DNA of 33,725 bases from positions 1 to 33,725 of the forward strand of contig JBKHGE010000023.1 of NCBI GenBank assembly GCA_046539845.1, in the 5' to 3' direction. A program made the position numbers and the translations under genes. Origin of the DNA: Desulfonatronovibrionaceae bacterium. Its GTDB lineage: Bacteria > Desulfobacterota > Desulfovibrionia > Desulfovibrionales > Desulfonatronovibrionaceae. Every line of letters starts with the position of its first letter. The stretch's first letter is position 1. The notes under the pieces were generated by a model. The model was given only the letters and a program-made list of their open reading frames with translations. It was not told where the DNA came from and did not search any database. Below, piece after piece: positions 12,744-30,247 of this stretch.

Positions 12744-13338
12744 TTAAGACCTCCTTTATTTCTTCATATCCGACTCGCTGGTCATTTCGCTCCCGGCAGA
12801 CAGAGGTCTGCGCGGCATCTTTCAGCCCGCAGGGGGTTATGTACCTAAAAAGGCTCAGATCCGGTCCTACATTCAAGGACAAACCGTGATAGGAGACCCA
12901 GTGCCGGACCGCGATTCCAATGGAGGCGATCTTCTTCTTGTTTGTCCACACACCCGGGTAGCCGGGCCGGGCCTCAGCCGGAATGCAAAAGAAGTGTAGG
13001 GTGTTGATCACCGCTTCCTGCAGGTCAAAGATCAATTTCTTTATCCCCCCGGGGCGTTTTTCCACACCCAGCACCGGATACATGACGAGCTGATCCGGGA
13101 AGTGACAGGTGATATCCCCGCCCCGAGTGGTTGGAATAATCTCAATGCCCTGCTCTTTAAGCTCGTTTTCGCTTATAAGCAGGTTTTCCCGCCCCCCGTT
13201 TCTGCCCAGGGTAATTACCGCTGGGTGGCGCAGGAAAAACACGGTCTCTTTCCCGCCGCAGCGGACTTCTTCCAGCCGTCGGAGCTGAATGTCCACTGCC
13301 TCTGTGTACGGGATCAGTCCCAGATCAATGATATCCAT
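12595..13338 (-). CDS. lipB: Octanoyltransferase
   Basis: HPAVITLGR, RGGDITCH, KIASIG, HGLSLNV, ITPCG. Start MDIIDLG at 13338 preferred over 13401. Confidence 0.92.
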   Translation of the reverse strand: MDIIDLGLIPYTEAVDIQLRRLEEVRCGGKETVFFLRHPAVITLGRNGGRENLLISENELKEQGIEIIPTTRGGDITCHFPDQLVMYPVLGVEKRPGGIKKLIFDLQEAVINTLHFFCIPAEARPGYPGVWTNKKKIASIGIAVRHWVSYHGLSLNVGPDLSLFRYITPCGLKDAAQTSVCRERNDQRVGYEEIKEVLSANMLRQFAHTTLASHQTAQGQGFHRDRKTAPGPGASDRMPGCQMPEHL

Positions 13339-13429
13339 TTTATTTCCGGACACAAATTCAGGCAAAATTTCGAAGTTAAGAGTCTGCAACTCAAATACCA
13401 AACATTGATTTCAGATGCTGCTTCGGGCA

Positions 13430-14332
13430 TCAGGCACCCGGCCTGCTGCTTGGGATGTTTTTGTTCAGTTTATGCATCTCCCGCATCCCGGCCCAGGAAT
13501 GCCACAGGATTGTCATAAGGATGATTCCCCCGCCCAGAAAGGTGGCCTCGGGGATCATCTCCCCGATAAACAGCCAGACCCAGATCGGGGCAAGTAAGGT
13601 TTCCACCAGCAAAAACAGGCTTACTTCCGGCGAGGGTAGGTACCTGGTGCTCTGGGCGATGAGGATGAGCGCGGCCGGCATCTGTACCAGCCCCATCAGG
13701 GCCAGCACCGCGTATGTCTCTGCCGGGAGATGCAAGGGGGCGGCCAGGGGCAGGGAGACTATACACATGACCAGGCCCCCCAGGCAGATGAGGACAAACC
13801 TGTCCAGGGAGCTGAAGCGGCGCAAGAGGGTGAGATTGGCCCCCATTAAGCAGGCGGCCAGAAGGGCGATCAGATCTCCCTTGATCCCGCCGAAGCGCAG
13901 AGATCCGGAAAACACGACCACCACCCCGCAGAGCGCAGCGGCAATGGCCGCCCATGTGCGCATGCCGATCTTGTCTATTCGGAATATCCGGGTGAATATG
14001 GCGGCGAAAAGCGGGGAGGCACTGATAAGGACTACTGCATTGGCCACCTTGGTATGCATGATGGAACTCACAAAGCAGGTCCCGCCCAGTCCGAAGAATA
14101 TCGCGGAACAGGCACCGGCGATCCAGATCTTTTTTTTCCGGGGCAGGGAGGGCTTTTTTTTGATCAAACATATAGCGCCCACGGAAAAGAACATGAATAT
14201 GCCCCGCCAGAAAAGGATATTCCAGCTCCCGGTCTGGGCCAGGCGGACCAAAAGGGAGTCCAGGCTGAGTATGGCCACTCCCAGGCCGACAATGGCCAGC
14301 CCTTTTTTTTTGTCTGTATGCATGGGCTTCAT
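13430..14332 (-). CDS. DMT/EamA-family transporter
   Basis: About 10 hydrophobic segments in two repeats; SPLFAA, GDLIAL, ETLLAPIWVWLFIGE. Confidence 0.9.
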   Translation of the reverse strand: MKPMHTDKKKGLAIVGLGVAILSLDSLLVRLAQTGSWNILFWRGIFMFFSVGAICLIKKKPSLPRKKKIWIAGACSAIFFGLGGTCFVSSIMHTKVANAVVLISASPLFAAIFTRIFRIDKIGMRTWAAIAAALCGVVVVFSGSLRFGGIKGDLIALLAACLMGANLTLLRRFSSLDRFVLICLGGLVMCIVSLPLAAPLHLPAETYAVLALMGLVQMPAALILIAQSTRYLPSPEVSLFLLVETLLAPIWVWLFIGEMIPEATFLGGGIILMTILWHSWAGMREMHKLNKNIPSSRPGA

Positions 14333-14497: not shown

Positions 14498-15607
14498 TTA
14501 TTGACCGGCCGCTTCTCTGGCTTTTTTCTGCCATTCGATCCACTTGTCTTTGTTCGCCTTTATCCATTCTGTAGCGTGCTTTTCCACGTCCTCCTGGGTG
14601 TCCTCGCCTTCAAACATCTTCTGGTTTTGAGTGGTTATGTCGTCAAAGGAAACAGACATGAGTTCGAACAGCTTTTTGGCGCCCGGGTTGTTGTCCAAAA
14701 ACTCCTTGTTGGCCACTACCCGGATGTCGTTGGCTGCAAAGCCCATATTGATGGGGTCGGTTACCGCCCCGTCTATATCGTTTCCGACAAGGGCCTCCTG
14801 GGGATTATCCAGGTCCTCCTGCTCCGGGGTGGGCTTGATCTCCGGGACGCCGATCCACAGGACGTCTTCGCCCGGCTTGAGTTTGTTCACCGTCCAGTTC
14901 GGGGTCCAGGTGTAAAAGAACACCGGTTCGCCGTTTTTGTGTTTGGCCACCTCGGAACTCATGCTCGCAGAGTATGACCCGGTGGTCACGTCAATGTTTT
15001 CGGCCACTTCCGGATAGGCCTCTTCCATGTGATAGGTGATTATCTTGTGGCATCCCCAGCCCGGAGGGCAGCCGACCATTTCCGCCTTGCCATCGTTGTC
15101 CACGTCAAAGGCCTCGACTACTTCCTCGCGCTTGAAATCAGCCAGGCTCTTTATGTCGTATTCTTCCACCAGGTCCTTGGAGGCCAGATAACCCTGCACG
15201 GCGCCGTTTTTAACGATATAGCCCACTTTTTCGGCCTTTTGATCGAAGTCGTCCGGGAGCATCTTGTTGTGCAGCGGGAACCAGCCGTTGGCCCAGAAGT
15301 CCAGGTCGCCGTCAACTAGGGACTGATAGAAGATGGGCCCGCTGACCTCCTTGTATTTTTCCACTTCATAGCCCATGTGTTCCAGGGCCCGGGTGTAGAT
15401 GGCCTCCAAAATAAATCCGCTGTTCCAAGTGGCCCGGGCCGGGCGCACCTTTTTGCCGCTGCCCGGATAGGTGGAGAATTCCTGGTTTACGAAAGCGCAT
15501 TCAAAATCCGGTGCTTCAGCGGTCTCTTTTTGTTCGCAGCTCATAAGCGGGACCAGTAGAACAGCCCCGAGTAAAAAAATTGTCAGTGCCTTGAGTTTGG
15601 ATTGCAT
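14498..15607 (-). CDS. proX: Glycine betaine/proline betaine ABC substrate-binding protein, predicted lipoprotein
   Basis: Three-Trp betaine box motifs NGWFPLH, GCPPGWGC, YTWTPNW; lipobox-like LMSC after a hydrophobic signal. Confidence 0.9.
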   Translation of the reverse strand: MQSKLKALTIFLLGAVLLVPLMSCEQKETAEAPDFECAFVNQEFSTYPGSGKKVRPARATWNSGFILEAIYTRALEHMGYEVEKYKEVSGPIFYQSLVDGDLDFWANGWFPLHNKMLPDDFDQKAEKVGYIVKNGAVQGYLASKDLVEEYDIKSLADFKREEVVEAFDVDNDGKAEMVGCPPGWGCHKIITYHMEEAYPEVAENIDVTTGSYSASMSSEVAKHKNGEPVFFYTWTPNWTVNKLKPGEDVLWIGVPEIKPTPEQEDLDNPQEALVGNDIDGAVTDPINMGFAANDIRVVANKEFLDNNPGAKKLFELMSVSFDDITTQNQKMFEGEDTQEDVEKHATEWIKANKDKWIEWQKKAREAAGQ

Positions 15608-16052: not shown

Positions 16053-17144
16053 TTACTTGGCGGCCTCTCTGGCTTCTCTCTGCCACTTGATCCATTTGTC
16101 CTTGTTGGCCTGGATCCATTCCGTGGCATGCTTTTCTATATCCTCTTGACTGTCTTCGCCGGCGAACATCTTGTCGTTCTGAGCGGCAATATCCTCAAAA
16201 GGCACACTCATGACCTCGAGCAACTTCTTTACCGCCGGGTTGTCCTGCAGGAATTCCTTGTTGGCCACCGGCCGGATATCGTTGGCGGCAAAACCGAACT
16301 CGATGGGATCGGAAACCGCGCCCGGGATATCGTGCCCGGTCAATGCGGCCTCAGGGTCCTTGAGTTCTTTCTGGGCGTCGTTGGGGATGATCTCCGGGAC
16401 GCCGATCCACAGGACATCCTCGCCCGGCTTGAGTTTGTTCACCGTCCAGTTCGGGGTCCAGGTGAAAAAGAACACCGGCTCGCCGTTTTTATGCCTGGAC
16501 ACGGCATCGGCCATGCTCGCGGCATAGGAGGCCTTGATCACGTTGATGTTTTCGCCCACTTCCGGGTAGGCCTCTTCCATGTGAAAGGTAATGGCCTGCT
16601 CGCAGCCCCAGCCCGGAGGGCAGCCGACCATGTCCGCCTTGCCGTCATTGTCTACGTCAAAGGCCTCTCTGACTTCCTTGCGCTTGAAGTCGGCCAAGGT
16701 CTTTATGTCGTATTTCTCCACCAGGTCCTTGGAGGCCAGATAGCCCTGGAGGGCGCCGCTTTTGACCACATAGCCCACTCTTTCGGCCTTGTCATCGAAA
16801 TTGCCGGGGAGCTGCTTGTTCTGCAGCGGGAACCAGCCGTTGGCCCAGTAGTCCAGATCCCCGTCTACTACGGACTGGTAGAAGATAGGGTTACTTACTT
16901 CCTTATATTTCTCGACATCATAGCCCAGATGCTCCAGGGCCCGGCTGTAAATGGCCTCCAGGATGAATCCAGATGTCCAGGAGCAGCGTCCCGGCTTTAC
17001 CGTGACTCCGTCACCAGGAAAGGTGGAGAATTCCTGGTTTATAAAGTCAACTTCAAAGTCCTTGGCCTGTGCGTTGCCGGTAAGCGGCAGCATTAAGACT
17101 GCACTGAACAGTAAAATGAACAGGGCTTTACTTGTGGTCCTCAT
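16053..17144 (-). CDS. proX: Glycine betaine/proline betaine ABC substrate-binding protein, predicted soluble periplasmic
   Basis: NGWFPLQ, GCPPGWGC, FTWTPNW; signal peptide ending AQA-K. Paralogue of 14498-15607. Confidence 0.9.
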   Translation of the reverse strand: MRTTSKALFILLFSAVLMLPLTGNAQAKDFEVDFINQEFSTFPGDGVTVKPGRCSWTSGFILEAIYSRALEHLGYDVEKYKEVSNPIFYQSVVDGDLDYWANGWFPLQNKQLPGNFDDKAERVGYVVKSGALQGYLASKDLVEKYDIKTLADFKRKEVREAFDVDNDGKADMVGCPPGWGCEQAITFHMEEAYPEVGENINVIKASYAASMADAVSRHKNGEPVFFFTWTPNWTVNKLKPGEDVLWIGVPEIIPNDAQKELKDPEAALTGHDIPGAVSDPIEFGFAANDIRPVANKEFLQDNPAVKKLLEVMSVPFEDIAAQNDKMFAGEDSQEDIEKHATEWIQANKDKWIKWQREAREAAK

Positions 17145-17284: not shown

Positions 17285-18547
17285 TTATGTCCCTTCCTCC
17301 CAGGAGTTCAGGTATTCGATCTGCTCCGGGGTGAGTTCGTCGATACTCAGCCCCATGGCTTCAAGCTGGATCCCGGCGATTTCGTTGTCGATCTCTTCCG
17401 GGAGCTGCAGCACCTTGGCCGGGAGATTACCCCGGTTTTTGACTCCGTATTCGCAGGCCATGGCCTGACCGCAGAAAGAGGTGGACATGACCTCGCTGGG
17501 ATGCCCTTCGGCCGCGGACAGATTGACCAGCCGGCCTTCGCCGAGGACAAAGATCTTTTTGCCCTCAACCGTGAACTCGTCCATGAAAGGACGGATCCTT
17601 TTGCCCTCCCCGGCCTTTTCCCGCAGGGTGTCCAGTTCGATTTCATTGTCGAAATGACCGGAGTTGCAGATTATGGCCCCGTTATGCATCATCTTCATGT
17701 GCTCGTAGCTTATGACGTGCTTGTTCCCGGTCACCGTGCAGAAGATGTCCCCGATGCGGGCAGCTTCATTCATGGGCATGACCCGGAAACCGTCATAGGC
17801 GGCCTGCAAAGCGCAGAAATTGTCCACCTCGGTGACTATGACATTGGCCCCCAGCCCGGTGGCCCGCTTGGCCACGCCCTTGCCGCAGCTGCCGTAGCCG
17901 ACGACCACAAAGGTTTTGCCGGCCATGAGTACGTTTGTGGCCCTGAGAATGCCGTCGATAGTGGACTGGCCCGTGCCGTAGAAGTTGTCCACCAGGTGCT
18001 TGGTCTTGTTGTCATTGACCGCGATCATCGGGTACTTGAGGGCGTTGTCCTTTTCCATGGCCTTGAGCCGGATTATACCCGTGGTGGTCTCCTCGCATCC
18101 GCAGATGATATCCGGGATGAGTTCCGGATTGCTCTTGTGGATCTCGGAGACCAGGTCGCAGCCGTCGTCAATGGTTATCTGCGGCTTACTCTGGATCACG
18201 TTGTGCAGGTAGCGATAGTAGTCCTCACCGGTCTCGCCCTTGTACGCCCAGACCTTGACCCCTTCGTCGGCCAGGGCGGCGGCTACGTCGTCCTGAGTGG
18301 ACAGAGGATTGCAGCCGGTTATGGACACCTCGGCCCCGCCGGCAATCAAGGTCCGGATCAGTATGCCGGTCTCTTTGGTCACATGCAGGGCCAAACCGAT
18401 CCTGACCCCCTGCAGGGGCTTTTCAGCTGCAAACCGTTCCCTTACCTTTAAAAGCGCGCCCATGTTCAGCTCGGCCAGATCCAGGTTATGTCTTCCTTGG
18501 GCAGCAAGGGACATGTCTTTCACTTCGTAATGGTTTCCTTTGTCCAT
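17285..18547 (-). CDS. ahcY: S-adenosylhomocysteine hydrolase
   Basis: LHVTKET, CNPLSTQD, DDGCDL, EETTTG, KHLVDN.YGTGQS, GYGSCGKG, GRLVNL..AEGHPSEVM. Confidence 0.97.
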   Translation of the reverse strand: MDKGNHYEVKDMSLAAQGRHNLDLAELNMGALLKVRERFAAEKPLQGVRIGLALHVTKETGILIRTLIAGGAEVSITGCNPLSTQDDVAAALADEGVKVWAYKGETGEDYYRYLHNVIQSKPQITIDDGCDLVSEIHKSNPELIPDIICGCEETTTGIIRLKAMEKDNALKYPMIAVNDNKTKHLVDNFYGTGQSTIDGILRATNVLMAGKTFVVVGYGSCGKGVAKRATGLGANVIVTEVDNFCALQAAYDGFRVMPMNEAARIGDIFCTVTGNKHVISYEHMKMMHNGAIICNSGHFDNEIELDTLREKAGEGKRIRPFMDEFTVEGKKIFVLGEGRLVNLSAAEGHPSEVMSTSFCGQAMACEYGVKNRGNLPAKVLQLPEEIDNEIAGIQLEAMGLSIDELTPEQIEYLNSWEEGT

Positions 18548-18583
18548 TTCTTCTCCTTTATTTAGTTTTGCTTCGTTTTGATT

Positions 18584-21001
18584 CTATGCGGAACCGACGA
18601 GTTTCTGCGCAGTCTTGACCGCGTTCACTGCATCAGTGGAAAAACCGTCGGCCCCTATTCTGGAAGCGAATTCCTCAGTGATCACCGCCCCCCCGATCAT
18701 GACCTTTATGCCCGTGTCCTTTTCCCGCAAGAGGTCGATGGTGTCCTGCATCCGGACCATGGTAGTGGTCATGAGTGCGGACAGACCCACGATATCCGCC
18801 TCCTGCTCTATGGCTTCCCGGACTATGTTCTTTGCAGGCACATCCTTGCCCAGATCAATGACCTCAAAGCCGTGGTTGCGCAAAAGTAGACAGACGATGT
18901 TCTTGCCTATGTCGTGGATATCGCCTTCTACAGTGGCCATGATGATTTTTTTGCTCTTTTCGCTGTCCGCCCCGCCTTCCAGATGGGGTTTGACCCGGGC
19001 GAAACCCTCCTGCATAGTCTCTGCGGAGAGCAGGAGCTGGGGGAGGAAATATTCTTTTTTTTCGTATTTTTCCCCGACTTCAATAATCCCGGGGATGAGC
19101 TGGTCGTTAACAATATTGAACGGCTTTTCTCCGCTATCCAGCTCCCTTTGCACCAATTCCTGTATGTTTTCTTTGTCCCCTTTGAGTACTGCTTCCTGTA
19201 AAACCGGCCTTTCTCTTTTCTCGGCCCCGGGTTTTGGGTCTGTGCCGGTGCTCGAGCCGCCGCCGTGGCGCCAGTCGGAATAGCCGTGGATAAAGGCCGA
19301 GGCCTGGGGATCCCTGCCCATGAGTACCTCGGACGCGGCCATTGCCTCCCGGATGCTGGCTGTGTTCGGATTGGCGATGCAGCTGCTTAAGCCCGTGGAA
19401 ACAGCCATGCTCAAGAAATTGGCGTTCAAGAGTTCTCTGGCCGGAAGGCCGAAAGAGATATTGGACAGTCCCAAGGTGGTGCACAAGCCGAGTTTGTCCC
19501 TGCAGTAGCGGATGGTCTCCAGACAGGCCCGGGCCGCCTCCGGCTTGGAAGAGACCGCCAGGGCCAGGACATCGACCATGATCAGCCGTTTGGGTATACC
19601 CAGGTCCTGGGCCCGCTGCAGCAGATCTTCTATAATCCGGATCCGGTCCCTGGATTCAACCGGGAGATCGCCCCCGCAAAGGGGCAGCAAAATGAAGGCC
19701 GAACCGTATTTTCGGCACAACGGCCCGAGTTCGTTCATTTTGTTCCCTTCACCGCTGATGGAGTTTATAAGAGCGGTGCCCGGATATTCCTCCAGGGCGG
19801 CAGAAATGGCCGCCGGGTCGGAGGAGTCCAGACACAGGGGTGCGGAGTGCCTCCTGGTCAGCTCCTGAACCAGGCGGGGCATTACCCGGGCCTCGTTGAC
19901 CATGGGGGCGCCGACATTGACATCCAAAATCGAGGCCCCGGCCTCCACCTGCTCCCGGGCCAGCCGCAGGGCCTCGGACAGGGTCTCTTCCTGTAGCTGT
20001 GCGGACAGGGTCTTTTTACCGGTGGGGTTGATCCTCTCCCCGATGCACACCGTGGGATGTTCCGGCCCCATAGGGACTGAGTTTCCTCTGGAGGTCAAAA
20101 TCAGATCCGGATGCTGACCGGCCCGGGGCAGGGAAATTTTTTTGTTCGCGCATTTTTCTTGCAATCGCCGGATATGGGCCGGAGAAGTCCCGCAGCATCC
20201 GCCCAGAAGAGAAGCGCCCATGTCCGCGAATACCGCGGTCAGCTCCGCAAATTCTTCCGGTCCCATCCGGAAAACGGTCTCCCCGTTTTCCAGTTCCGGT
20301 AGTCCGGCGTTGGGTTCCACCAGCAAAGGGGTGTTTAAGCGCACGAGCATGCGCTCCACGACATCCTTGAACTGGGCCGGGCCCGCACTGCAATTGGTGC
20401 CTATGATGTCCGCGCCCAGGTTCTGCATGGTGTCCACAAAGGTAAGCGGGTCCGTACCGGTAAGGCTGGTCCCGTTTTCAAAGGTCATGGACACGGCCAC
20501 CGGCAGATCGCAGACTTCGCGGGCAGCGATGACCACGGCCCTGGCTTCGGAGAGATCGAAGTGGGTCTCGGCCAGGATGAAATCCGCTCCGCCCTGGGCC
20601 AGGCCCTTGATCTGTTCTTTGTATGCCCGGACCAGATCCGGAAATCTGGCATCGCCCAGGGGGGCGAGCATCTCCCCGGTGGGACCGGCGGTCCCGGCCA
20701 CCCAGGCCCAATCCCCGGCCACTTCACGGGCCACACCGGCCATATGCCGGTTGAAGTCGGTTACGTCCACACCGGGTTCGAGCTTGTATCCGGTGGCCCC
20801 GAACGTGTTCGTGGTCAGGACGTTTGCCCCGGCCTCCAGATACTGGGAATGTACCGCGGCTATGGCTTGGGGATTTTTCCTCCCGAAGTCCTCCGGGGAT
20901 TCGCCGGGTCCGAGCCCTTCTTTTTGGAGTAGGGTGCCCATGGCCCCGTCAAACACGAGCATGTTTCCCCTGCGGATATGTTCAAGGATGCTGGTTTTCA
21001 T
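18584..21001 (-). CDS. metH: Cobalamin-dependent methionine synthase without the C-terminal reactivation domain
   Basis: Homocysteine domain (DGAMGT, NCS, GGCCG), pterin domain (IGERINPTGK, GLSNISFGLP), B12 domain (TVEGDIHDIGKN, SALMTTT, GGA); ends at 805 aa. Confidence 0.93.
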   Translation of the reverse strand: MKTSILEHIRRGNMLVFDGAMGTLLQKEGLGPGESPEDFGRKNPQAIAAVHSQYLEAGANVLTTNTFGATGYKLEPGVDVTDFNRHMAGVAREVAGDWAWVAGTAGPTGEMLAPLGDARFPDLVRAYKEQIKGLAQGGADFILAETHFDLSEARAVVIAAREVCDLPVAVSMTFENGTSLTGTDPLTFVDTMQNLGADIIGTNCSAGPAQFKDVVERMLVRLNTPLLVEPNAGLPELENGETVFRMGPEEFAELTAVFADMGASLLGGCCGTSPAHIRRLQEKCANKKISLPRAGQHPDLILTSRGNSVPMGPEHPTVCIGERINPTGKKTLSAQLQEETLSEALRLAREQVEAGASILDVNVGAPMVNEARVMPRLVQELTRRHSAPLCLDSSDPAAISAALEEYPGTALINSISGEGNKMNELGPLCRKYGSAFILLPLCGGDLPVESRDRIRIIEDLLQRAQDLGIPKRLIMVDVLALAVSSKPEAARACLETIRYCRDKLGLCTTLGLSNISFGLPARELLNANFLSMAVSTGLSSCIANPNTASIREAMAASEVLMGRDPQASAFIHGYSDWRHGGGSSTGTDPKPGAEKRERPVLQEAVLKGDKENIQELVQRELDSGEKPFNIVNDQLIPGIIEVGEKYEKKEYFLPQLLLSAETMQEGFARVKPHLEGGADSEKSKKIIMATVEGDIHDIGKNIVCLLLRNHGFEVIDLGKDVPAKNIVREAIEQEADIVGLSALMTTTMVRMQDTIDLLREKDTGIKVMIGGAVITEEFASRIGADGFSTDAVNAVKTAQKLVGSA

Positions 21002-21004
21002 TTA

Positions 21005-21847
21005 CTAGACGTTGTTTTCCTTTTTTAGAACAAATATGCCCCAGACCAGGTTCCCGGATTTGCCGCCGTTCACCCAGTTTTGCAGGCCCGTTTTCATGTT
21101 GTTGATATACTCGGGGGAAACGCTTTTCAAGAGTTCGTCCTCCATGTTTGCGGTTTCCTCCAGTATCCGGCCGTAATGGGTGATCATCTGGTCCGTGTAG
21201 TTTTCGAACTTCCTTTCCTTGAGCCCGTATTTTTCTCCGGTTTCCCGGTAAAATCCTGGAGAACCCATGCTTTCCAGGTGGATGCGGTCGTAGATGGGCT
21301 GCAGATCATTGCAGTTGCAGTCATCGGACTGCATGGGATCGGTGAAGATAAACTCCCCGCCCGTCTTGAGCACTCGGGAGACCTCGTGGATGACCTTTTC
21401 CCGATTCCCGCTATGCAGGATTGCATCCTGGGACCAGACCAGGTCGAAGGAATCGTCCGGGTAGGGGATGTCCTCGAAGCTGCCGTCTTTCACCTCTATC
21501 AGGTGTTCCACTCCCTGTTTTTTGTTTTTTTCCCGGTTCCTTTCGTTTTCCTTCTCGCTTAAGTTCAGGCAGCACACCCGGCAGCCGTACTTTTTGGCCA
21601 GGTATCTGGCTGCCCCGCCGTATCCGGCCCCGATATCCAGGACCCGGGACCCAGCATTCAGGGTTTCGGAACAATTGGCCATGGCGGCCACAGTCTTTCT
21701 ACTGGCCTCGAACACCGAATCCTGAGGCGAGTCATAAAGTCCGATATGGATGTCCTCGCCGCCCCATACCTTGTAATAAAAGGTATCCGCGTCTTGGCTG
21801 TTGTAATAATTGCGTGCGGTCTGCACTGGTGCTGTATATGTCTGCAT
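21005..21847 (-). CDS. sdmt: Sarcosine/dimethylglycine N-methyltransferase
   Basis: YYNSQDADTFY..WGGEDIHIGLY, LDIGAGYGGAARYLA, WSQDAILHSG, FTDPMQ, IYDRIHL, WGIF; ATG 21847 with AGGAGG RBS. Confidence 0.92.
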   Translation of the reverse strand: MQTYTAPVQTARNYYNSQDADTFYYKVWGGEDIHIGLYDSPQDSVFEASRKTVAAMANCSETLNAGSRVLDIGAGYGGAARYLAKKYGCRVCCLNLSEKENERNREKNKKQGVEHLIEVKDGSFEDIPYPDDSFDLVWSQDAILHSGNREKVIHEVSRVLKTGGEFIFTDPMQSDDCNCNDLQPIYDRIHLESMGSPGFYRETGEKYGLKERKFENYTDQMITHYGRILEETANMEDELLKSVSPEYINNMKTGLQNWVNGGKSGNLVWGIFVLKKENNV

Positions 21848-21848
21848 T

Positions 21849-22673
21849 TTATAAGTCCTCCTCTTTTTTGGGGATGTATTCCTTTTCCGCGACATGGATG
21901 TAATAGTCGGGGTCATCCTCTTTGTAGGTTTCCTTGAAGTCGCCGAAAGTCTCGATGGACTGGAAGCCCACCCCGTGCATCAGATCCTGCAGATATTTTT
22001 TGCGCAAGGGGAACATGTTCAGATAATACTCGGAGTTGTCCTTGTGGAAAACGTATTTGAACCGGGCCAGCCCCTCGTCAATATGTTCCGGTTCAGCAGA
22101 AACGGCATCCCCGCAGTAATAGTACTTGTGTTTGCAGGTGAAGCCGTGATCCAGCATGGAGTCGTAATTACGCTGATCCAGAATCAAGACGCCGTCGTGG
22201 CGCAGTGTGGCGTAGAATTCAGCCAAAGCTTTCCTGCGGTCCCTTTCCTCGAATAAATGAGTAAAGGAATTGCCCAAGCAGATGACCGCGTCGAATTCAC
22301 TGTGGATATCCCGGTTAAGCATTCTCCAGTCGGCCTGGACCGTGCGTAGCATGACTCCGTGGTCGCGGGCGTTAGAAAAGGCCTGAGTGAGCATTTCCGG
22401 GTTTCCGTCCGCGCTGATTACCTCGAATCCGGCCTTTAAAAGGCGAACTGAATGGAAGCCGGTTCCGGTAGCTACGTCCAAAACCCTTTTGGCTCCGCGT
22501 TTTTTAAGTTCCCGAATGTAGAAATCACCTTCGTTTTTGGCCCTGGATTCCCAATCGATGAGTTCGTCCCACTTTTCCACAAAGGGTTTGACGTACTCTT
22601 CCTGATAGTGACCGGACTCCCTGACTTTGATCGGGTCTTTGCCAAAATTTTGTTTTTGATTTTCAACCGACAT
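21849..22673 (-). CDS. gsmt: Glycine/sarcosine N-methyltransferase
   Basis: FVEKWDELIDWE.RA, LDVATGTGFHSVRL, CLGNSFTHLF, DQRNYD, HKYYYCG, GLARF.Y, LNMFPLRK. Confidence 0.94.
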   Translation of the reverse strand: MSVENQKQNFGKDPIKVRESGHYQEEYVKPFVEKWDELIDWESRAKNEGDFYIRELKKRGAKRVLDVATGTGFHSVRLLKAGFEVISADGNPEMLTQAFSNARDHGVMLRTVQADWRMLNRDIHSEFDAVICLGNSFTHLFEERDRRKALAEFYATLRHDGVLILDQRNYDSMLDHGFTCKHKYYYCGDAVSAEPEHIDEGLARFKYVFHKDNSEYYLNMFPLRKKYLQDLMHGVGFQSIETFGDFKETYKEDDPDYYIHVAEKEYIPKKEEDL

Positions 22674-22700
22674 ATTTACCTCCTTAGGTAGGATTAGAGA

Positions 22701-23624
22701 TTAGCTGATTTCCTGCAACCGCTTACCCACCTCTTCCGGAGTGAAGGTATGGGCCTGAGTGCCGTGTTTTTCCACGCAGAAGCTGGCGCAGACCGCTCCC
22801 AATCTGGCCGCTTCCTCCAGCGGCAAATCCTGGGAAAGCCCCTTTATGACACCGGCCCGGAATGCGTCCCCGGCCCCGGTGGGGTCGGGTGCATTTTCCA
22901 CTTTGACCGCGGGCACAGGATGTTCTCCGGTTTTGTTGATTATCCTCCCTCCTTTTTCCCCCAGAGTGACAATTATGTTCTCGGTAAGCTCCAGGATCCT
23001 GGCATGTGAAAGACCGGTCTTCTGGCAGACCTGTTCCAGTTCGTAGTCGTTGCAGACAAGGATAAGCGATCCGTGCATCATTCGGCGCAGTTCCTCCCCG
23101 CTCAAAGCAGGGATGGACTGGCCGGGGTCACAGATAAAAGGGATTTTCTCTTTCCGGAATTTTTCCGGGTAATGCTGCATGTCCTGGAGATTGCCCGGAG
23201 AAACAATGGCCAGGCAGTTGTCCCGGGCGAAGCCGTTTACTTCCTGGTTGCAGGGGTAGCCCATGGCTCCGGGGTTGAAGCCGATTATCTGGTTGTCGTT
23301 CTGGTCTGTGGTTATGTACGCGCTGGCAGTGGGGACATCCTGCAGCGTACGTATTCCTTGGGTGGAGAGGTCGTTTTTCTCCAGCCAATCCTTGTATTCG
23401 CCGAAATCCTTGCCCGCGGTAGCGAAGATCACCGGTTTTTCCTCCAGCAGGCGCAGGTTGTAGGCGATATTCCCGGCGGTCCCGCCAAACTTTTCCTCCA
23501 TGCCGTTGACCATAAAGCAGACGTTTAGCATGTGGATCTTATCCGGCAGGATGTGATCCGAGAATTTGCCCGGGAAGGGCATTATCCTGTCCAAAGCGAG
23601 CGAACCAGATACAATAATGTCCAT
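22701..23624 (-). CDS. PfkB-family kinase, probable adenosine kinase
   Basis: SGSLALD.IM.FPGKF.DHILPD, FGGTAGNIAY, PfkB signature DPTGAGDAFRAG; resembles bacterial (mycobacterial-type) adenosine kinases and lies in an operon with ahcY. Confidence 0.82.
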   Translation of the reverse strand: MDIIVSGSLALDRIMPFPGKFSDHILPDKIHMLNVCFMVNGMEEKFGGTAGNIAYNLRLLEEKPVIFATAGKDFGEYKDWLEKNDLSTQGIRTLQDVPTASAYITTDQNDNQIIGFNPGAMGYPCNQEVNGFARDNCLAIVSPGNLQDMQHYPEKFRKEKIPFICDPGQSIPALSGEELRRMMHGSLILVCNDYELEQVCQKTGLSHARILELTENIIVTLGEKGGRIINKTGEHPVPAVKVENAPDPTGAGDAFRAGVIKGLSQDLPLEEAARLGAVCASFCVEKHGTQAHTFTPEEVGKRLQEIS

Positions 23625-23644
23625 GATTAATTCCTATTTCGATT

Positions 23645-24814
23645 TTATACCTTGCAGGCGGTTCTCAGGTCGTCGACAGCGTCGGCCTTCTCCCAAAGGA
23701 ATTCCGGGTGTTCGCGGCCGAAATGACCGTAATTGGTAGTCTGTCTGTAGATGGGCCGAAGCAGGTTCAGCCGTTTGATAACGTAGTAGGGCCGCATGTC
23801 GAATACTTCCCGGACTGCCTTGGTCAGGGTCTCGTCGTCTACTTCCCCGGTCCCTCGGGAAGTGACCACCACTGAAACCGGATCAGCCACCCCGATGGCA
23901 TAGGCGATCTGCACCTCGCAGCAGTCCGCAAGGCCGGCGGCGACCACATTTTTGGCGATATACCTGGCCATATATGCCCCGGAGCGGTCCACCTTGGAGG
24001 GGTCTTTTCCGGAGAATGCACCGCCGCCGTGGGCCCCCTGGCCGCCGTATGTGTCCTGGATGATCTTGCGGCCGGTGAGTCCACAGTCGCCCATGGGTCC
24101 GCCGACCACAAAGCGGCCGGTGGGATTGATATAAATAGTGGTATCTTTGTCTATGAGGTCCTCGGGGATGGTCCTGTTGACCACTTCCTCCCGGATGGCG
24201 TCCTGAAGATCGGAATAGGATATTTTGTCCGTGTGCTGGGAGGAGATGACTATGTTCTCGATTCCCACCGGCTGGTCACCCTCGTATTTAACCGCCACCT
24301 GGGTCTTTCCATCCGGGCGCAAAAAATCCAGGATGCCGTTTTTGCGCACATAGGCCAGCCTGCGGGAGAGCTTGTGTGCCCAGTAGATCGGGGCGGGCAT
24401 GAGCTTATCCGTTTCCCTGCAGGCGAAACCGAACATCATCCCCTGATCCCCGGCACCCTGTTCTTCCGGTTTCTTGCGGTTCACGCCCTGGGCAATATCC
24501 GGGGACTGTTTGTCTATACTGGAAATGACCGAGCAGGTCTCCCAGTCAAAGCCCATATCCGAATGGTTGTAGCCGATATCCCGGATGGTGTTCCTGGCAA
24601 TCTCCTGCAGGTCGGCAAACGCCTCGGTTCCGATCTCCCCGCCGATAAACACCAGGCCGGTTGTGGCCAGAGTCTCACAGGCCACCTTGGCATTGGGGTC
24701 CTGGTCCAGGATGCAGTCCAGGACGGCATCGGAAATGGCATCCGCCACTTTGTCCGGGTGACCCTCGGTCACTGACTCGGACGTGAAAACGTATTTACCG
24801 TTGTTCTTGATCAT
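23645..24814 (-). CDS. metK: S-adenosylmethionine synthetase
   Basis: [48 protein letters not shown]. Confidence 0.98.
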
Positions 24815-24931
24815 GATTTAAACCTCCTTTTCGCCCCGTTATATATAGGCTGAATTGGGGCCTTGGTTTTAATTGCGTTCCCTGACGGAACTCCCGGATA
24901 CATAAGTCCGGGTGTATGACTCGTGGTTAAT

Positions 24932-25801
24932 TCAGAACGGACAGTTATTGATGATGTCCAGGGAGGGTTGGGCCCGGTTAAGGGTGTACAGGTGTACCCC
25001 CGGCGCCCCTTTTTCCAAGAGGTCGTTTATCTGTTCGGCAGCAAAATCGATTCCGAATTTGAGCACGCCTTCCGGCCCCTGGTTTTCCTTTATCTTTTCC
25101 ACTTCCAAAAACAGCGAACCCGGAATCATGGTCCCGGATACGGACAAGATGTACCGGAGGGAATTAAAGCTCAGTATGGGCAGCACCCCGGGAATTACCG
25201 GACATTCGATCCCTAATCCCTGCAATCGGTCCACAAAATCGAAGTATTGCCGGTTGTCAAAAAAGAATTGGGTGTGCAGGAGGTCCACCCCTTTTTCCAC
25301 TTTGTGTTTGAGCCAGTAGAGGTCCTCCTTGATGCTCGGTGACTCCGGATGTGCCCCAGGATAAGCGGCTGCCGCCACACACAGGTCCGGGTTCTGGGCC
25401 TTGAGGAATTCCACCAGCTCCGAGGCGTAATCGAATTCTCCGTTGCCTGTCCTGGCTTCCGGATCCCGGGGTTGGTCCCCGCGCAGGGCCAGCACATTGT
25501 CGATCCCGACTTCCGAGATCTCTTGTAAAAACCCTTTCAGTTCCTCCCGGCTGGAGTTAACACAGGTCTGATGGACCATGACCTCCAGGCCGTGGTCCTG
25601 CTTCATGGTCCGGGCCACGGGCATGGTATTGCCCCGGCCGGTTCCACCCGCACCGCAGGTAATGGATACAAAATCCGGCCCGGACCGGCTGAGTTGTTCC
25701 ACGTTCTCCCAGAATCTCGGATATTTTTCCTCCTCTTTGGGTGGGAAGAATTCCAGGGAGAGCGATCGGTGCTTGTCTCTGATCTTATCAAGTATGCGCA
25801 T
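24932..25801 (-). CDS. metF: Methylenetetrahydrofolate reductase
   Basis: SLEFFPPK, PDFVSIT.GAGG, NVLALRGD, AAYP..HPES, TQFFFD, GVHLYTLN. Confidence 0.94.
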   Translation of the reverse strand: MRILDKIRDKHRSLSLEFFPPKEEEKYPRFWENVEQLSRSGPDFVSITCGAGGTGRGNTMPVARTMKQDHGLEVMVHQTCVNSSREELKGFLQEISEVGIDNVLALRGDQPRDPEARTGNGEFDYASELVEFLKAQNPDLCVAAAAYPGAHPESPSIKEDLYWLKHKVEKGVDLLHTQFFFDNRQYFDFVDRLQGLGIECPVIPGVLPILSFNSLRYILSVSGTMIPGSLFLEVEKIKENQGPEGVLKFGIDFAAEQINDLLEKGAPGVHLYTLNRAQPSLDIINNCPF

Positions 25802-25973
25802 CTTTAATTCTCCAGACTCTTTTTTTCAGGCCCATAATAGAGGCTTCGTATTTTTTACGCATGTCAGATGCCAAACCAAAAGAAAACAGTTGAAAAGGGT
25901 ATTATCAAAAATTTAGTGATTGCGTAGTGAAATTCAGTTTGAAAACACGGGTTGGGCGCCTGTTAGGTTTGTG

Positions 25974-26001
25974 ACCATAGCGTATTATTTGTGCTTGTCA
26001 A
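25974..26001 (-). promoter_or_regulatory. Putative sigma70 promoter of the metF-ahcY operon
   Basis: TTGACA-N16-TATGGT on the minus strand, with a very AT-rich tract immediately upstream. Confidence 0.55.
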
Positions 26002-27076
26002 GAAATGTTTTTAAAGAAATTTTTAAGCAATTAAAAATGTAAAAATCAATAGAAAATATTAAAATTTATGCATTATAAGTATAATCATATATACTTTTAT
26101 TTGTTTTGTAGATTGAATAAATATCAAAACTAAAAAAATGCTGTTATATTTTAAATTTGTATATTATTTTTATGTAAAAGTTTAATATTTTTTCATTGTC
26201 TATATTGTTTAAATTTATAATAGTCGTCCTAAACCATGTAGGTTTTAGTTTAAATATTTTAAAAATAAAATTGTAATCGTATTTTTTTTGATTCGTAATG
26301 GTCCAGGGATTATATCTGACTGGAAAAGAAGACAAGGATTTATGCAAGATTGTTGGGTCAATTCTCTTTCAAGGCCTCCAGAATAATGTCTATATAGGCC
26401 CAATAAAAAGTCGGTCCCAATAATATTTTTTTGTGCTTCAGGTGTTGGAGACCAAATTCAAAAAATCGTTTTCAAAGGCTTCCCCCGGATGGACAAATCC
26501 TTTTGCGATCCTGACATTGGCAGGTCTGGTCCGGGCTCGGCCAGCCATGAGGAGGCTCATGTCCGGGTCGGCCTTTATCCCCGCCCTCTGATCATCATCC
26601 CGGGGATGCTCCCGGAAATAGGTCGCTAATGCCCGGACCCTTGCCTGATCGCCAACCGGAGGTCTCAGCCGGAAAAGTGTTCTTTACCTTGGCCGATTAA
26701 ATTTTCTCCGGAGCCGGTCATGTTGACGGCAGTGATCATTATTCAGGGCCTTGGACATCCAGTGGGTTTATTTTGTGGTTTATATCTGGGATGTTACATA
26801 TCCGGGTATCCGCATAAAGTCCTTGCTATGCTTGTGCACTGTCTGCCTTGTATGCTTAGTTGCGTAAGCATTGCTTGATGTTGCTGTAGTGAAACTTGTA
26901 TTCAGAGTCATTTTTTTTCATTTCCACCCGGCAGGTTTTGTTCTTCAAGTCTCACAACAGATGTTATTTTCTTTTTAAGAATACAAGGTATTCTGTTTTG
27001 TCTGCAAAGCGTATTTCTCTTTGCGTTCTACTGATAGAAGGCTATATTGTCTGCTTAGAGTAATTCGATGCATCCC

Positions 27077-27106: not shown

Positions 27107-27255
27107 TTTTGTTTAGAAGATAACATAATTCAGGGAAACGGGGCGATCCTCAGGTCGGGCGGATAGTTTCTGGAGGTGGACTTTCCTTCCTGAGGCGGCA
27201 TTTCGTGCCCATTGAAGATGCTTTTAGACAAAAATACATTTTTACAGGAGTTGAT

Positions 27256-28464
27256 ATGACCAGGAATGACACTGTTTCCAGAGTTAAGGTGGAGAATCTG
27301 TATAAAATATTTGGAAGCGGAGATCTTAACCAGGCCTATGAGCTCGTGGGCAAAGGGGAAAGTAAGGACGAAATCTTTGCCAAGACCGGCCTGACCATCG
27401 GGGTTAAGGATGCCTGTTTCGAGGTCAAGGGCAACGAGATATTCGTGGTTATGGGCCTGTCCGGCTCGGGCAAATCCACTCTGGTCCGTATGCTTAACAG
27501 ACTTATCGAGCCTACCAGCGGCACGGTTCTTATCGAAGGCAATGATATCAGCAAGCTGAATAATGAGGAGCTTGTCCAGCTCAGGCGTGATTATATGAGC
27601 ATGGTCTTTCAGTCCTTTGCCCTTTTGCCGCATCTAACAGTCGCACAGAACGCCGCCCTGGGTTTGGCCATGGCCGGGCGTCCGACAGATGAACAGGAAA
27701 AAAGGGCCATGGAGGTTTTGGAGATGGTCGGGCTCAAGGCCAATGCAAACAGCTACCCATCGGAACTCTCCGGGGGTATGCAACAGAGAGTGGGGTTGGC
27801 CCGCGGTCTGGCAACCGATCCGGATATTATGCTCATGGACGAGGCGTTTTCCGCACTTGACCCCTTGATCCGCGCCCAGATGCAGGACGAGTTGTTGCGT
27901 ATTCAGGAAGAGAACCCGCGCACGATTGTTTTTATTTCTCATGACTTGGACGAGGCCATCCGCATCGGAGACAGGATAGCGATCATGGATGCCGGGGAGA
28001 TCGTCCAGATCGGCACCCCGGAAGAAATCCTCAAGGACCCGGCCAATGATTATGTCCGCTCTTTTTTCCGCGGGGTGGATCCAACCATGGTCTTTACCGC
28101 CAGGGAAATAGCCGCGGACCATTATGAGACCATAATCCGGCACAAGGGAGTCGGTCCGAGGAGCGCCCTGGAGCAGCTTTATCACAGTGATGCCCATGTA
28201 GGATATATATTGAACAGCAGGAAGCAGTATGAGGGTATGGTGTCCGCAACCAGGCTCAAGGAGGTGGTCGAGCGTAGCGGCTCTTTGGAAGAGGCGTTCG
28301 TGGACTATGTCTCGCCGGTGGGCTGCGACGAATATCTGCAGGACGTGCTGGAGAAGATCACCAATTCTGAATATCCAGTGCCGGTGGTGAATGAAGACAA
28401 TGTCTATCAGGGGGCCATATCCAGGCGGCGTTTTTTGAAGACACTTGTCAAGTCCGAAGTTTAG
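27256..28464 (+). CDS. proV: Glycine betaine/proline ABC transporter ATP-binding subunit with C-terminal CBS-like region
   Basis: MGLSGSGKSTL, VFQSFAL, LSGGMQQRVGLAR, LMDEAFSALDPLIR, SHDLDEA; ATG 27256 preceded by AGGAG. Confidence 0.95.
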   Translation: MTRNDTVSRVKVENLYKIFGSGDLNQAYELVGKGESKDEIFAKTGLTIGVKDACFEVKGNEIFVVMGLSGSGKSTLVRMLNRLIEPTSGTVLIEGNDISKLNNEELVQLRRDYMSMVFQSFALLPHLTVAQNAALGLAMAGRPTDEQEKRAMEVLEMVGLKANANSYPSELSGGMQQRVGLARGLATDPDIMLMDEAFSALDPLIRAQMQDELLRIQEENPRTIVFISHDLDEAIRIGDRIAIMDAGEIVQIGTPEEILKDPANDYVRSFFRGVDPTMVFTAREIAADHYETIIRHKGVGPRSALEQLYHSDAHVGYILNSRKQYEGMVSATRLKEVVERSGSLEEAFVDYVSPVGCDEYLQDVLEKITNSEYPVPVVNEDNVYQGAISRRRFLKTLVKSEV

Positions 28465-28587: not shown

Positions 28588-29430
28588 ATGATGCTGAATA
28601 TATTTGATTGGTTTACCCTGCCGTTGGAAAATTGGGTGGAGACAGGAGTGGACTGGCTGGTAACCAATTACCGCTTTATTTTTCAGGCCATTAAATGGCC
28701 GATTGATAAGGTGCTAGTGGCCATCAGGGATTTTTTGCTCTGGGTCAATCCGGTCGTGGTAATTGCGGTCATGGTCGGTATAGCCTGGAAGTATGCCTCG
28801 CGTGGGGTGGCTGTGTTCACTTTGCTCGCCCTTCTTTTGCTCGGCTATACCGGGGTTTGGGAAGAGGCCATGATCACTTTGTCCATGATCCTGGCTTCTG
28901 TGATCTTCTGTATAGTGGTAGGGATTCCTCTGGGCATTTTGTTGTCTCAGAGCGACAGGCTGGCCGGAGTGATCCGGCCGGTGCTGGATATAATGCAGAG
29001 CACCCCGGCCTTCGTGTATCTGGTGCCCGTGGTCATGCTCTTCAGTATCGGGACCGTGGCCGGAGTCATCGCCACTATTGTCTTTGCCATCCCCCCGACC
29101 ATTAAGCTTACCAATCTGGGGATTAGGCAGGTGCACCCGGAACTCATCGAGGCCGGCCTGGCCTGCGGGGCCACAAGAAAACAGATACTGCTCCGCATCC
29201 AGCTGCCCCTGGCCAAACAGACCATTATGGCCGGGCTGAACCAGACCATTATGCTTTCTTTGGCCATGGTGGTCATCGCTTCGCTTATCGGGGCCGGCGG
29301 TCTGGGCGTGCTCGTGTTCGAGGGTGTAAACAGCATGCGGGTAGGACTGGCAGTTATCGGCGGACTGGGCATTGTCCTTATAGCCATTGTCTTGGACCGC
29401 ATCACTCAGTCTCTGGCCGGCAAAAGATAG
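28588..29430 (+). CDS. proW: Glycine betaine/proline ABC transporter permease
   Basis: RPVLDIMQSTPAFVYLVP, LTNLGIRQV, EAA-like IEAGLACGA, MAGLNQTIMLSL, LDRITQ. Confidence 0.95.
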   Translation: MMLNIFDWFTLPLENWVETGVDWLVTNYRFIFQAIKWPIDKVLVAIRDFLLWVNPVVVIAVMVGIAWKYASRGVAVFTLLALLLLGYTGVWEEAMITLSMILASVIFCIVVGIPLGILLSQSDRLAGVIRPVLDIMQSTPAFVYLVPVVMLFSIGTVAGVIATIVFAIPPTIKLTNLGIRQVHPELIEAGLACGATRKQILLRIQLPLAKQTIMAGLNQTIMLSLAMVVIASLIGAGGLGVLVFEGVNSMRVGLAVIGGLGIVLIAIVLDRITQSLAGKR

Positions 29431-29444
29431 GCACGGAAGATATA

Positions 29445-29484
29445 ACGGGTTGGGCTTTTTTATACGGGCGCCCAATCCGTTTTT
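29445..29484 (+). terminator. Probable terminator after proW
   Basis: ACGGGTTGGGC-loop-GCCCAATCCGT followed by TTTT. Confidence 0.6.
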
Positions 29485-29623: not shown

Positions 29624-30247
29624 ATGGGCAGCAAGGAATCCATTCTGGAGAAGGTATATAACCCGGCGGACAAACAGGATCTTATGGCCGCATACAGCGA
29701 TTGGGCCGGGGAATATGATCGGGATACAGTGGATGAATTCGGCTATGTGGGGTTTAAGGCCTGTGCCGAGGTCCTGGACAGGCACCTGCAGGGGGATCCG
29801 GAGGTAAGGGTTCTGGACGCTGGCTGCGGGACTGGTCTGGTGGCGGAAATCCTTTGGCCCCGCGGATATATGACAATGGACGGCCTGGATTATTCCCGGG
29901 AAATGCTGGATCAGGCGGAGCGCAAAGGGGTGTACGCCAATCTGCTGCACGTGGACCTGACCCGGCCCCTGGATATCGAAGACAACGCTTACGGGGCCAT
30001 AGTCTGTGCCGGTACTCTGACATACGGCCATGTGGGCCCGGAGGTCTTTTCCGAGTTCATCCGGATCACCAGGCCCGGGGGCGTGGTTTGCTTTACCATC
30101 AGGGAAGGCGCCTATGAGGAATACGGTTTCCGCAATGAAATGCTGCGCCTGGAAACCGAAGGGGCCTGGGAGCTCTTAGAGATGCTGGATACAGAATATT
30201 ACAAAGGCAGGGTGGGGGCCAAAATCTGCGTGTACAGGATTTCCTAG
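29624..30247 (+). CDS. Class I SAM-dependent methyltransferase, substrate unknown (resembles METTL27/WBSCR27-like proteins)
   Basis: Y..WA..YD motif, VLDAGCGTGL, GLDYS.EML, GTLTYGHV, RPGG; AGGAGG RBS. Confidence 0.88.
   Translation: MGSKESILEKVYNPADKQDLMAAYSDWAGEYDRDTVDEFGYVGFKACAEVLDRHLQGDPEVRVLDAGCGTGLVAEILWPRGYMTMDGLDYSREMLDQAERKGVYANLLHVDLTRPLDIEDNAYGAIVCAGTLTYGHVGPEVFSEFIRITRPGGVVCFTIREGAYEEYGFRNEMLRLETEGAWELLEMLDTEYYKGRVGAKICVYRIS

Follow-up and report, generated by a model that had tools for sequence, protein, structure and literature searches.

A predicted glycine betaine operon with its own methyl cycle in a member of the Desulfonatronovibrionaceae

The seven-gene block and its predicted products

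Contig JBKHGE010000023.1 of a Desulfonatronovibrionaceae bacterium (assembly GCA_046539845.1) carries, within the 33,725-nucleotide stretch analysed here (the window), a block of seven genes that appears to join the synthesis of glycine betaine to a complete cycle for regenerating its methyl donor, S-adenosylmethionine (SAM). The source genome, G000, is a 65-contig draft of 2.34 Mb that is 98.9% complete and whose dsrA scores over its cut-off, hence the label of sulfate reducer; its contigs are given C-numbers, and its congeners are G001 (64% complete), G002 and G003 (99% complete). The block occupies 17285..25801 on the minus strand in the order metF-metK-PfkB kinase-gsmt-sdmt-metH-ahcY, with all seven open reading frames (ORFs) intact and intergenic gaps of 117, 20, 27, 1, 3 and 36 bp. 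These gaps take the ATG at 21847 as the sdmt start; the mechanical ORF list uses a longer upstream start at 21916. A purine-rich stretch resembling a ribosome-binding site precedes six of the seven starts, and no such sequence lies close to the start of metH, 3 bp past the sdmt stop.

Conversion of glycine to betaine takes three SAM-dependent methylations and releases three molecules of S-adenosylhomocysteine (SAH). The gsmt product (21849..22673, minus strand) scores 484.9 bits against the glycine/sarcosine N-methyltransferase family NF051855, over the cut-off of 350, and matches the solved GSMT 5GWX at E 1e-129. For sdmt (21005..21847, minus strand), the putative sarcosine/dimethylglycine N-methyltransferase, the best family is NF041675 (413.8 against a cut-off of 550); the protein matches the putative SDMT structure 2O57 at E 8.5e-73 and is 66% identical to the product of the gene after gsmt in Methanohalophilus profundi. 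A homologue of SDMT also follows gsmt in 78 of the best 80 of 581 loci in a GTDB survey of gsmt, where contig ends cut many loci, so that all counts from it are lower bounds. The two enzymes are predicted to act on glycine, sarcosine and dimethylglycine. SAH inhibits the GSMT of Methanohalophilus, with an I50 of 37-70 uM (PMC5201303).

The remaining five genes account for the methyl cycle. The metF product (24932..25801, minus strand), a predicted methylenetetrahydrofolate reductase (MTHFR), is identified by the Pfam MTHFR domain (277 bits, over its cut-off) and falls just under the cut-off of TIGR00676 (291.1 against 293.7). The metK product (23645..24814, minus strand) is recognised as a SAM synthetase by TIGR01034 (599 against 309). 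The kinase (22701..23624, minus strand) belongs to the PfkB family (PF00294), with its motifs intact, and reaches no NCBIfam cut-off. Its best PDB matches are 3B1N/3B1R (E 2e-65), the former of which we take to be a broad nucleoside kinase, and the adenosine kinase 2PKF/4O1G (E 6e-54), and it falls in the 2PKF/3B1N subgroup. It is 41% identical to the product of the gene after sdmt in Methanohalophilus, which has been named adk (PMC5201303). The block kinase is most likely an adenosine kinase, a preference suggested by its context and by the type of SAH hydrolase encoded beside it.

That hydrolase, AhcY (17285..18547, minus strand), is of the short, 420-residue type and scores 591 against a TIGR00936 cut-off of 498. 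Its fingerprint, HVTKE, is of the HxTxE type rather than HxExK; the former has been linked to a preference for SAH and the latter to enzymes preferring S-inosylhomocysteine (PMC10978960). The top solved relatives of AhcY include the S-inosylhomocysteine hydrolase 7R3A. MetH (18584..21001, minus strand; 805 residues), the predicted B12-dependent methionine synthase, has four Pfam domains and what we take to be its characteristic GGCC and DIHDIG motifs. It lacks the B12 reactivation domain PF02965, which was not found in any of five genomes, and its shortness and the missing domain explain why it reaches 486.6 against a TIGR02082 cut-off of 1010.85. In this it differs from the canonical E. coli type and fits the short Desulfovibrio MetH, which depends on a RamA-like protein for reactivation (bioRxiv 192971); a gene for a RACo/RamA-type protein lies on a separate contig, C4. 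The order, strand and gaps given in an earlier, sequence-only reading of the window agree exactly with the ORF coordinates, and family scores and solved relatives uphold its gene identities and its point that the methyl cycle is physically coupled to glycine methylation.

Upstream of metF lies a sigma-70-like promoter sequence (TTGACA ... TATGGT; 25974..26001, minus strand) that matches the consensus at 10 of 12 positions and could serve the block. Scanning the window returned 7 sites against 13 expected in shuffled sequence, so the scan alone proves nothing, and only this site was retained: in all three aligned congeners its -35 hexamer is invariant and its -10 region similar, within poorly conserved DNA. 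Apart from it, the 1.4 kb divergent region shows no conserved operator among the three congeners compared, and alignment of the sequence upstream of proV gave no clearly conserved site. From the short gaps, this conserved site and a strong hairpin that comes only after proX, we infer that the seven genes are co-transcribed. Third-position GC content (0.64-0.77 across the block) lies close to the genome-wide mean of 0.68 +/- 0.05, and no sign of present-day mobility was seen in the block; a search of plasmids for gsmt returned one record, predicted to be non-mobilizable, with a gsmt-like match of <60% identity.

Distribution of the block and fate of the scattered genes

G002 and G003 carry these seven genes in identical order, with proX downstream and proVW divergent, and the 4.8 kb contig of G001 shows that order up to its end; this agreement argues that the block is not a chance arrangement. 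In the relatives sampled that have no block, metF, metK, metH and ahcY are mostly scattered and at most paired. Of 401 genomes sampled from the order (Desulfovibrionales), 18 have a GSMT over the cut-off, as do 8 of 401 sampled from the phylum, G000 being included in both counts. All 17 other positive genomes of the order were examined at the locus, and the full block proved confined to the genus. Elsewhere in the order we found metK-kinase-gsmt-sdmt (G438), metK-ahcY-gsmt-sdmt (G452 and G440), gsmt-sdmt (G753 and G705) and, in eight genomes, gsmt alone, several of these on short contigs; the seven other positives of the phylum comprise three metK-ahcY-gsmt-sdmt, one gsmt-sdmt and three lone gsmt. 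Among the best 80 of 581 GTDB loci the partners near gsmt besides sdmt were metK (15), ahcY (11), metH-like genes (11), metF (5) and the kinase (5). All six partners occur together in two of these 80, one in a close congener, which is not independent, and the other in Desulfobulbus alkaliphilus (L046). As to the distribution, which the sequence-only reading had proposed to survey, the gene order was seen in the genus only among the loci read, and the seven functions also in D. alkaliphilus.

The same reading had raised the matter of whether these are the cell's only copies, and for three of the four genes named they are. In G000 the block holds the sole metF (a tblastn search matched nothing but the block copy), metH and ahcY, as well as the sole kinase of its subgroup; metK has a second, native copy on C17, 71% identical to that of the block. 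Copy numbers in G003 match, with single metF, metH and ahcY. G002, by contrast, has the block plus scattered metK, long-type ahcY, metH and metF, which share 71, 39, 57 and 42% identity with their counterparts in the block. The scattered genes of G002 stand where outgroup genomes have theirs (the outgroup loci are a selection from 41 genomes searched): metH between a sigma-70 gene and thioredoxin-like and GNAT genes, as in 9/9 outgroup loci, metF in the setting of the outgroups, where it precedes asd in 8/8 and follows pilC in 6/8, and long ahcY beside dciA, as in 2/6. In G000 these ancestral sites are empty, with their flanks adjacent on C9 (45425/45771), C40 (13240/13302) and C17 (20326/20487); 160 bp separate the flanks of the empty ahcY site. 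At the metH and metF sites G001 and G003 agree with G000: both flanks are assembled and neither gene is there, which makes three of three congeners other than G002. Since a tree of five flanking proteins places G002 outside the other three (support 96/96), one loss per gene suffices.

Trees of the individual proteins point to mixed relationships. The native metK copies of the genus fall among those of the rest of the family (100/99). Of the block proteins, AhcY is placed with genus g2 and family f2, MetH sits among other families of the order, and MetF joins the cassette copies found in D. alkaliphilus and Desulfuromusa (SH-aLRT support 97). The gsmt-linked MetK and AhcY of Methanohalophilus, D. 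alkaliphilus, Desulfuromusa and Desulfocarbo make up a lineage separate from the block, which implies at least two lineages of cassette. An extra set of genes, as in G002, recurs elsewhere: G713 has metF-metK-kinase-gsmt-sdmt together with second copies of metF and metK, and G452 has a second metK. The ancestor of the genus would have acquired or assembled the block as an additional set, and the ancestor of G000, G001 and G003 would then have lost the scattered metF, metH and long-type ahcY while keeping native metK. An additional methyl cycle serving betaine synthesis thus appears to have become the sole one in the G000 lineage, and this evolutionary displacement is the new point.

The MetF sequences differ at one motif. 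Cassette-linked copies (window 24932-25801; L022, L023, L035, L046 and L186) read T-C-GAGG, and the ancestral copies checked read T-Y-GAGG; across 120 MetF homologues this position is Cys in 27 and Tyr in 93, and the gsmt-linked MetF of L088 is an exception in carrying Tyr. MetF of the genus and of G713 also has H-Q-TC in place of H-L-TC. The Cys-bearing cassette proteins may be a subfamily specialised for betaine flux.

Proposed working, competing explanations and known relatives

We propose, at a probability of about 0.8, that the block is a de novo glycine betaine operon with its own methyl cycle, which now acts as the cell's sole machinery for recycling methionine and SAM; the proposal builds on homology, gene order, copy numbers, empty sites and tree shape. 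GSMT and SDMT would transfer three methyl groups from SAM onto glycine, and AhcY would split the inhibitory SAH. As the AhcY reaction is reversible, removal of adenosine by the kinase and of homocysteine by MetH would pull it forward, MetF would provide methyl-tetrahydrofolate and MetK would remake SAM. Methylene-tetrahydrofolate and glycine would come from serine hydroxymethyltransferase and glycine cleavage, the B12 of MetH would be reactivated by the RACo/RamA-type protein, and a split ProU transporter would recover betaine; flux through these steps and any control by salt are presumed. The term self-contained, applied to the system by the sequence-only reading, does not suit it, since MetH has no reactivation domain, the RACo-type gene is on C4, and glyA (C6) and gcvP (C40) are both unlinked to the block. 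It is also conceivable, if rather less than an even bet, that the betaine cassette has captured the whole methyl cycle, so that the cell could no longer do without the operon and would depend on a salt-tuned promoter and enzyme pool for methionine synthesis and every SAM-dependent methylation.

Several observations weigh against this account. SDMT, MetF, MetH and the kinase each score under their NCBIfam cut-offs. The ancestral ahcY site was not found in G001, whose assembly is just 64% complete, and its right flank is rearranged in G003. Block metK forms a clade of its own whose placement is supported at 84/54; the trees of ahcY, metH, metF, kinase, gsmt and sdmt are quick ones with few rows, the first three with long branches, and the donors of the block genes, including gsmt and sdmt, are not settled by them. 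As to expression, ahcY and proX are separated in G000 and G003 by a hairpin that has no good U tract, so proX may be partly uncoupled from the block, and an internal promoter could sit in the 117 bp gap between metF and metK. An Rfam scan of the whole window gave no match at the gathering threshold, so no SAM or SAH riboswitch was seen, and one query with an ArsR-methyltransferase protein found no full-length SahR-like repressor in the four genomes of the genus, SahR sites not having been scanned.

That gsmt and sdmt were instead inserted into an existing housekeeping operon for methionine and SAM, with clustering unrelated to betaine demand, would suit the block's standing as sole source of metF, metH and ahcY in G000, and partial clusters free of gsmt do exist, genus g2 having ahcY-metK and family f2 metK-kinase. 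Yet the five-gene operon is missing from every gsmt-free relative sampled, metF and metH stand alone at conserved distant sites, and G002 retains the ancestral copies alongside the block; even the f2 clusters are followed by sdmt in two of three cases, one with a 28-codon gsmt remnant where its congener G438 has gsmt intact. We regard insertion as largely refuted and highly improbable. Scarcely better placed is a cycle through S-inosylhomocysteine, in which SAH would first be deaminated, inosine would be set free by the short archaeal-like hydrolase, and the kinase would be an inosine kinase. The relationship of AhcY to 7R3A and an unlinked G000 amidohydrolase, whose 42% identical counterpart lies upstream of metK in the cluster of Methanohalophilus, would fit such a route, but the fingerprint of AhcY is of the HxTxE type and the amidohydrolase lies outside the block. 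Least credible of all is that the single copies are an artefact of assembly or binning: G000 is a 65-contig draft, but it is nearly complete, continuous sequence spans all three ancestral sites with their flanks adjacent, and G003, also nearly complete, likewise has single metF, metH and ahcY.

A better-placed alternative, though still an unlikely one, concerns control and scale, and follows the sequence-only reading in having the whole cycle switched by salt at transcription and betaine synthesis act as a sizeable sink for one-carbon (C1) units and electrons. In its favour, the block has one promoter-like site at its head, on the strand opposite to proVW; a full-length SahR-like repressor was not detected in any of the four genomes of the genus; and methylation is costly, one review putting the regeneration of one SAM at 12 ATP equivalents (PMC12807369). 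The SahR-like gene is, however, also missing from the gsmt-free genera g3 to g6, so its absence is not tied to the block, and SahR loss as a consequence of the block was rejected for the same reason. With the block as sole source of metF, metH and ahcY, and no MetE found, basal expression would be needed whenever methionine is not supplied, so the operon cannot simply be off at low salt. In Methanohalophilus, GSMT is controlled at the enzyme level by K+, betaine and SAH (PMC3176816), and a proteome had plentiful betaine proteins at each of the three salinities, low, control and high (bioRxiv 2026.01.29.702513). That salt switches the whole cycle is possible but unsupported, and any control by salt is more likely graded or exerted on the enzymes than on/off. 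The claimed sink is unsupported as well, because Fhs was not found in any of five genomes and the product is presumably a retained cell solute. Two serines would likely yield a single betaine along with CO2 and NH3, at the expense of three MetF reductions and with one NADH regained; three reductions per retained betaine would be small beside sulfate respiration, and betaine synthesis would be a growth-linked biosynthetic cost rather than a catabolic sink. With a median pI of 6.27 across 988 long ORFs, the proteome of G000 shows no strong acidity, which fits a strategy based on organic solutes.

The betaine operon proposed here resembles published clusters. As the sequence-only reading stated, gsmt and sdmt share clusters with SAM-cycle genes in halophilic methanogens (Methanohalophilus; PMC5201303) and phototrophs (Halorhodospira; PMC7824335). 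Imhoff et al. 2020 describe fused GMT/DMT genes with genes for MTHFR, methionine synthase (MS), methionine adenosyltransferase (MAT) and SAH hydrolase (SAHase) in two Rhodobacteraceae, Roseivivax and Roseovarius, and a similar cluster in Actinopolyspora halophila (PMC7824335). The likeness lies in betaine methyltransferases standing beside MAT, SAHase, MS and MTHFR, all four of which are in the G000 block (MetF and MetH by Pfam domains, below the TIGR cut-offs), with SAM supply and SAH removal as the rationale given, which is also that of the sequence-only reading. The G000 block differs in its separate methyltransferase genes, its kinase (unless the unnamed 'o' ORF of A. halophila is one too), its MetH of the short RamA-dependent type, its sulfate-reducing host and its split ProU. 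'Desulfo' is absent from the main text of that paper (PMC7824335), and its available passages do not discuss replacement of housekeeping copies.

In Methanohalophilus portucalensis the cluster is sams1-sahh1-gsmt-sdmt-adk, with sahh2 downstream (Lai and co-workers; PMC3176816, PMC5201303). It shares with the block separate gsmt and sdmt of the same families and the clustering of SAM synthetase, SAH hydrolase and adenosine kinase; it has no metF or metH, its order is different, and its MetK, linked AhcY and kinase belong to the lineage of the D. alkaliphilus, Desulfuromusa and Desulfocarbo loci. In that organism the making of betaine has been demonstrated by experiment. Halorhodospira has a probable operon GMT-DMT-MAT-SAHase-MTHFR that likewise ties methyl supply to betaine synthesis (PMC7824335, PMC7042295), with methionine synthase elsewhere and no kinase listed in the passages available. 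The delta-proteobacterial SahR regulon also places ahcY, metH, metF and metK under coordinated control (PMC4239095); there a repressor governs scattered genes, while in G000 they form a single block and a SahR-like protein of full length was not found. Closest in content is D. alkaliphilus (L046:1081-11469), where all seven functions lie in one block in a sulfate/sulfur-cycling member of the Desulfobacterota. Its order is metK-ahcY-gsmt-sdmt-metF-kinase-split metH, its MetH has an activation domain of its own, and its MetK, AhcY and kinase are of the other lineage. The two blocks seem for the most part to have been put together separately, although their MetF copies cluster with each other.

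The full loop (PMC7824335) and an adenosine kinase in such a cluster (PMC5201303) are each in print, in different organisms, and the novelty that the sequence-only reading allowed for the seven-gene loop is not supported. Our literature search, which excluded subscription papers and supplements, whose gene tables could include the block, found no account of the block or of the displacement in sulfate reducers, and no description of the D. alkaliphilus block. The block would work like the known clusters that combine betaine synthesis and a methyl cycle, and the added value is the captured evolutionary sequence and the second assembly in D. alkaliphilus. The locus documents predicted genes for de novo betaine synthesis and a full methyl cycle in the Desulfovibrionales, where gsmt is rare, and gives a staged example of operon formation and gene displacement in which a stress-related extra set duplicates and then replaces housekeeping genes. 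G002, with both sets, and G000 and G003, with one, form a natural before-and-after pair for comparing the regulation of a dedicated and a housekeeping cycle. As a compact block for SAM recycling, the seven genes offer a template for engineering salt tolerance or methyltransferase pathways, for which B12 and a RamA-type reactivator are needed too.

ProU genes and related loci

ProU is split around the block. On the minus strand, ahcY is followed by proX (16053..17144; betaine/proline binding protein, NF008334 over cut-off) after 140 bp in G000 and after 69 bp in G002. Only behind this gene does a strong hairpin occur, at 16038-16014 and backed by a U tract, and proX is probably the last gene of the transcript. 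A tandem paralogue, 72% identical, lies at 14498..15607 (minus strand), G000 and G003 having two copies and G002 one. Divergent from the block, about 1.4 kb upstream of metF, are proV (27205..28464, plus strand; ABC ATPase, NF007480 over cut-off, true start likely near 27256) and proW (28588..29430, plus strand; permease, with NF008196 and TIGR03416 as best families, both below cut-off, and Pfam BPD_transp_1). The statement that ProU genes flank the block therefore holds in that transport genes lie on both sides, with the qualification that the system is divided into a proX pair after ahcY and a divergent proVW upstream. A proX-like gene follows proW in 9/9 matching relatives outside the genus and in 0/4 genomes inside it. 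G000 also has a second complete betaine-type ABC transporter, on C15 (41421-44344, L179).

The DNA between the divergent units is strongly AT-rich at 25802-26300 (GC 0.37 over 26001-27000), as it is in the congeners. A 21-nucleotide imperfect inverted repeat (25943-25963 / 29464-29484), with just these two copies in the genome, flanks the divergent promoter region and proVW; it was considered as the ends of a proVW inversion and rejected, as it is not conserved in the congeners and is probably a chance match. After proW, an unassigned class I methyltransferase gene (29624-30247) is present in G001 and G003, not in G002, and has a paralogue on C51. Downstream of the proX pair lie lipA-lipB and an EamA transporter gene (window 11877-13401 and 13430-14332). 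The EamA adjacency is kept in G002 and G003, and its product could be an exporter of betaine or another metabolite; the lipAB adjacency is not kept in either, and lipA/lipB were rejected as part of the system.

Related loci in other genomes show further arrangements. Both G025 (L114:7405-10921) and its congener G438 (L185:7323-11450) have glyA, metK, the kinase and sdmt; gsmt is intact in G438 and reduced to a 28-codon C-terminal remnant in G025. G038 has metK-kinase-sdmt without gsmt, and a lone sdmt of this kind may convert scavenged sarcosine or dimethylglycine. In G032 (L115:8972-19618) and G009 (L120:9476-20000) metK, in G032 together with the kinase, stands first in a cluster that also encodes a corrinoid protein, a pair of MttB-like methyltransferases and a RACo-like protein, possibly a route from methylated amines to SAM. 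In Ca. Electrothrix (L089:12078-16222) gsmt-sdmt precede a fused homocysteine methyltransferase-MTHFR gene, metK and an ahcY divided between two ORFs, a third way of linking the methyl cycle. The window also holds, at 448-2108, an IS200/IS605-type element with tnpA (Y1 transposase) and a divergent tnpB of the RNA-guided family.

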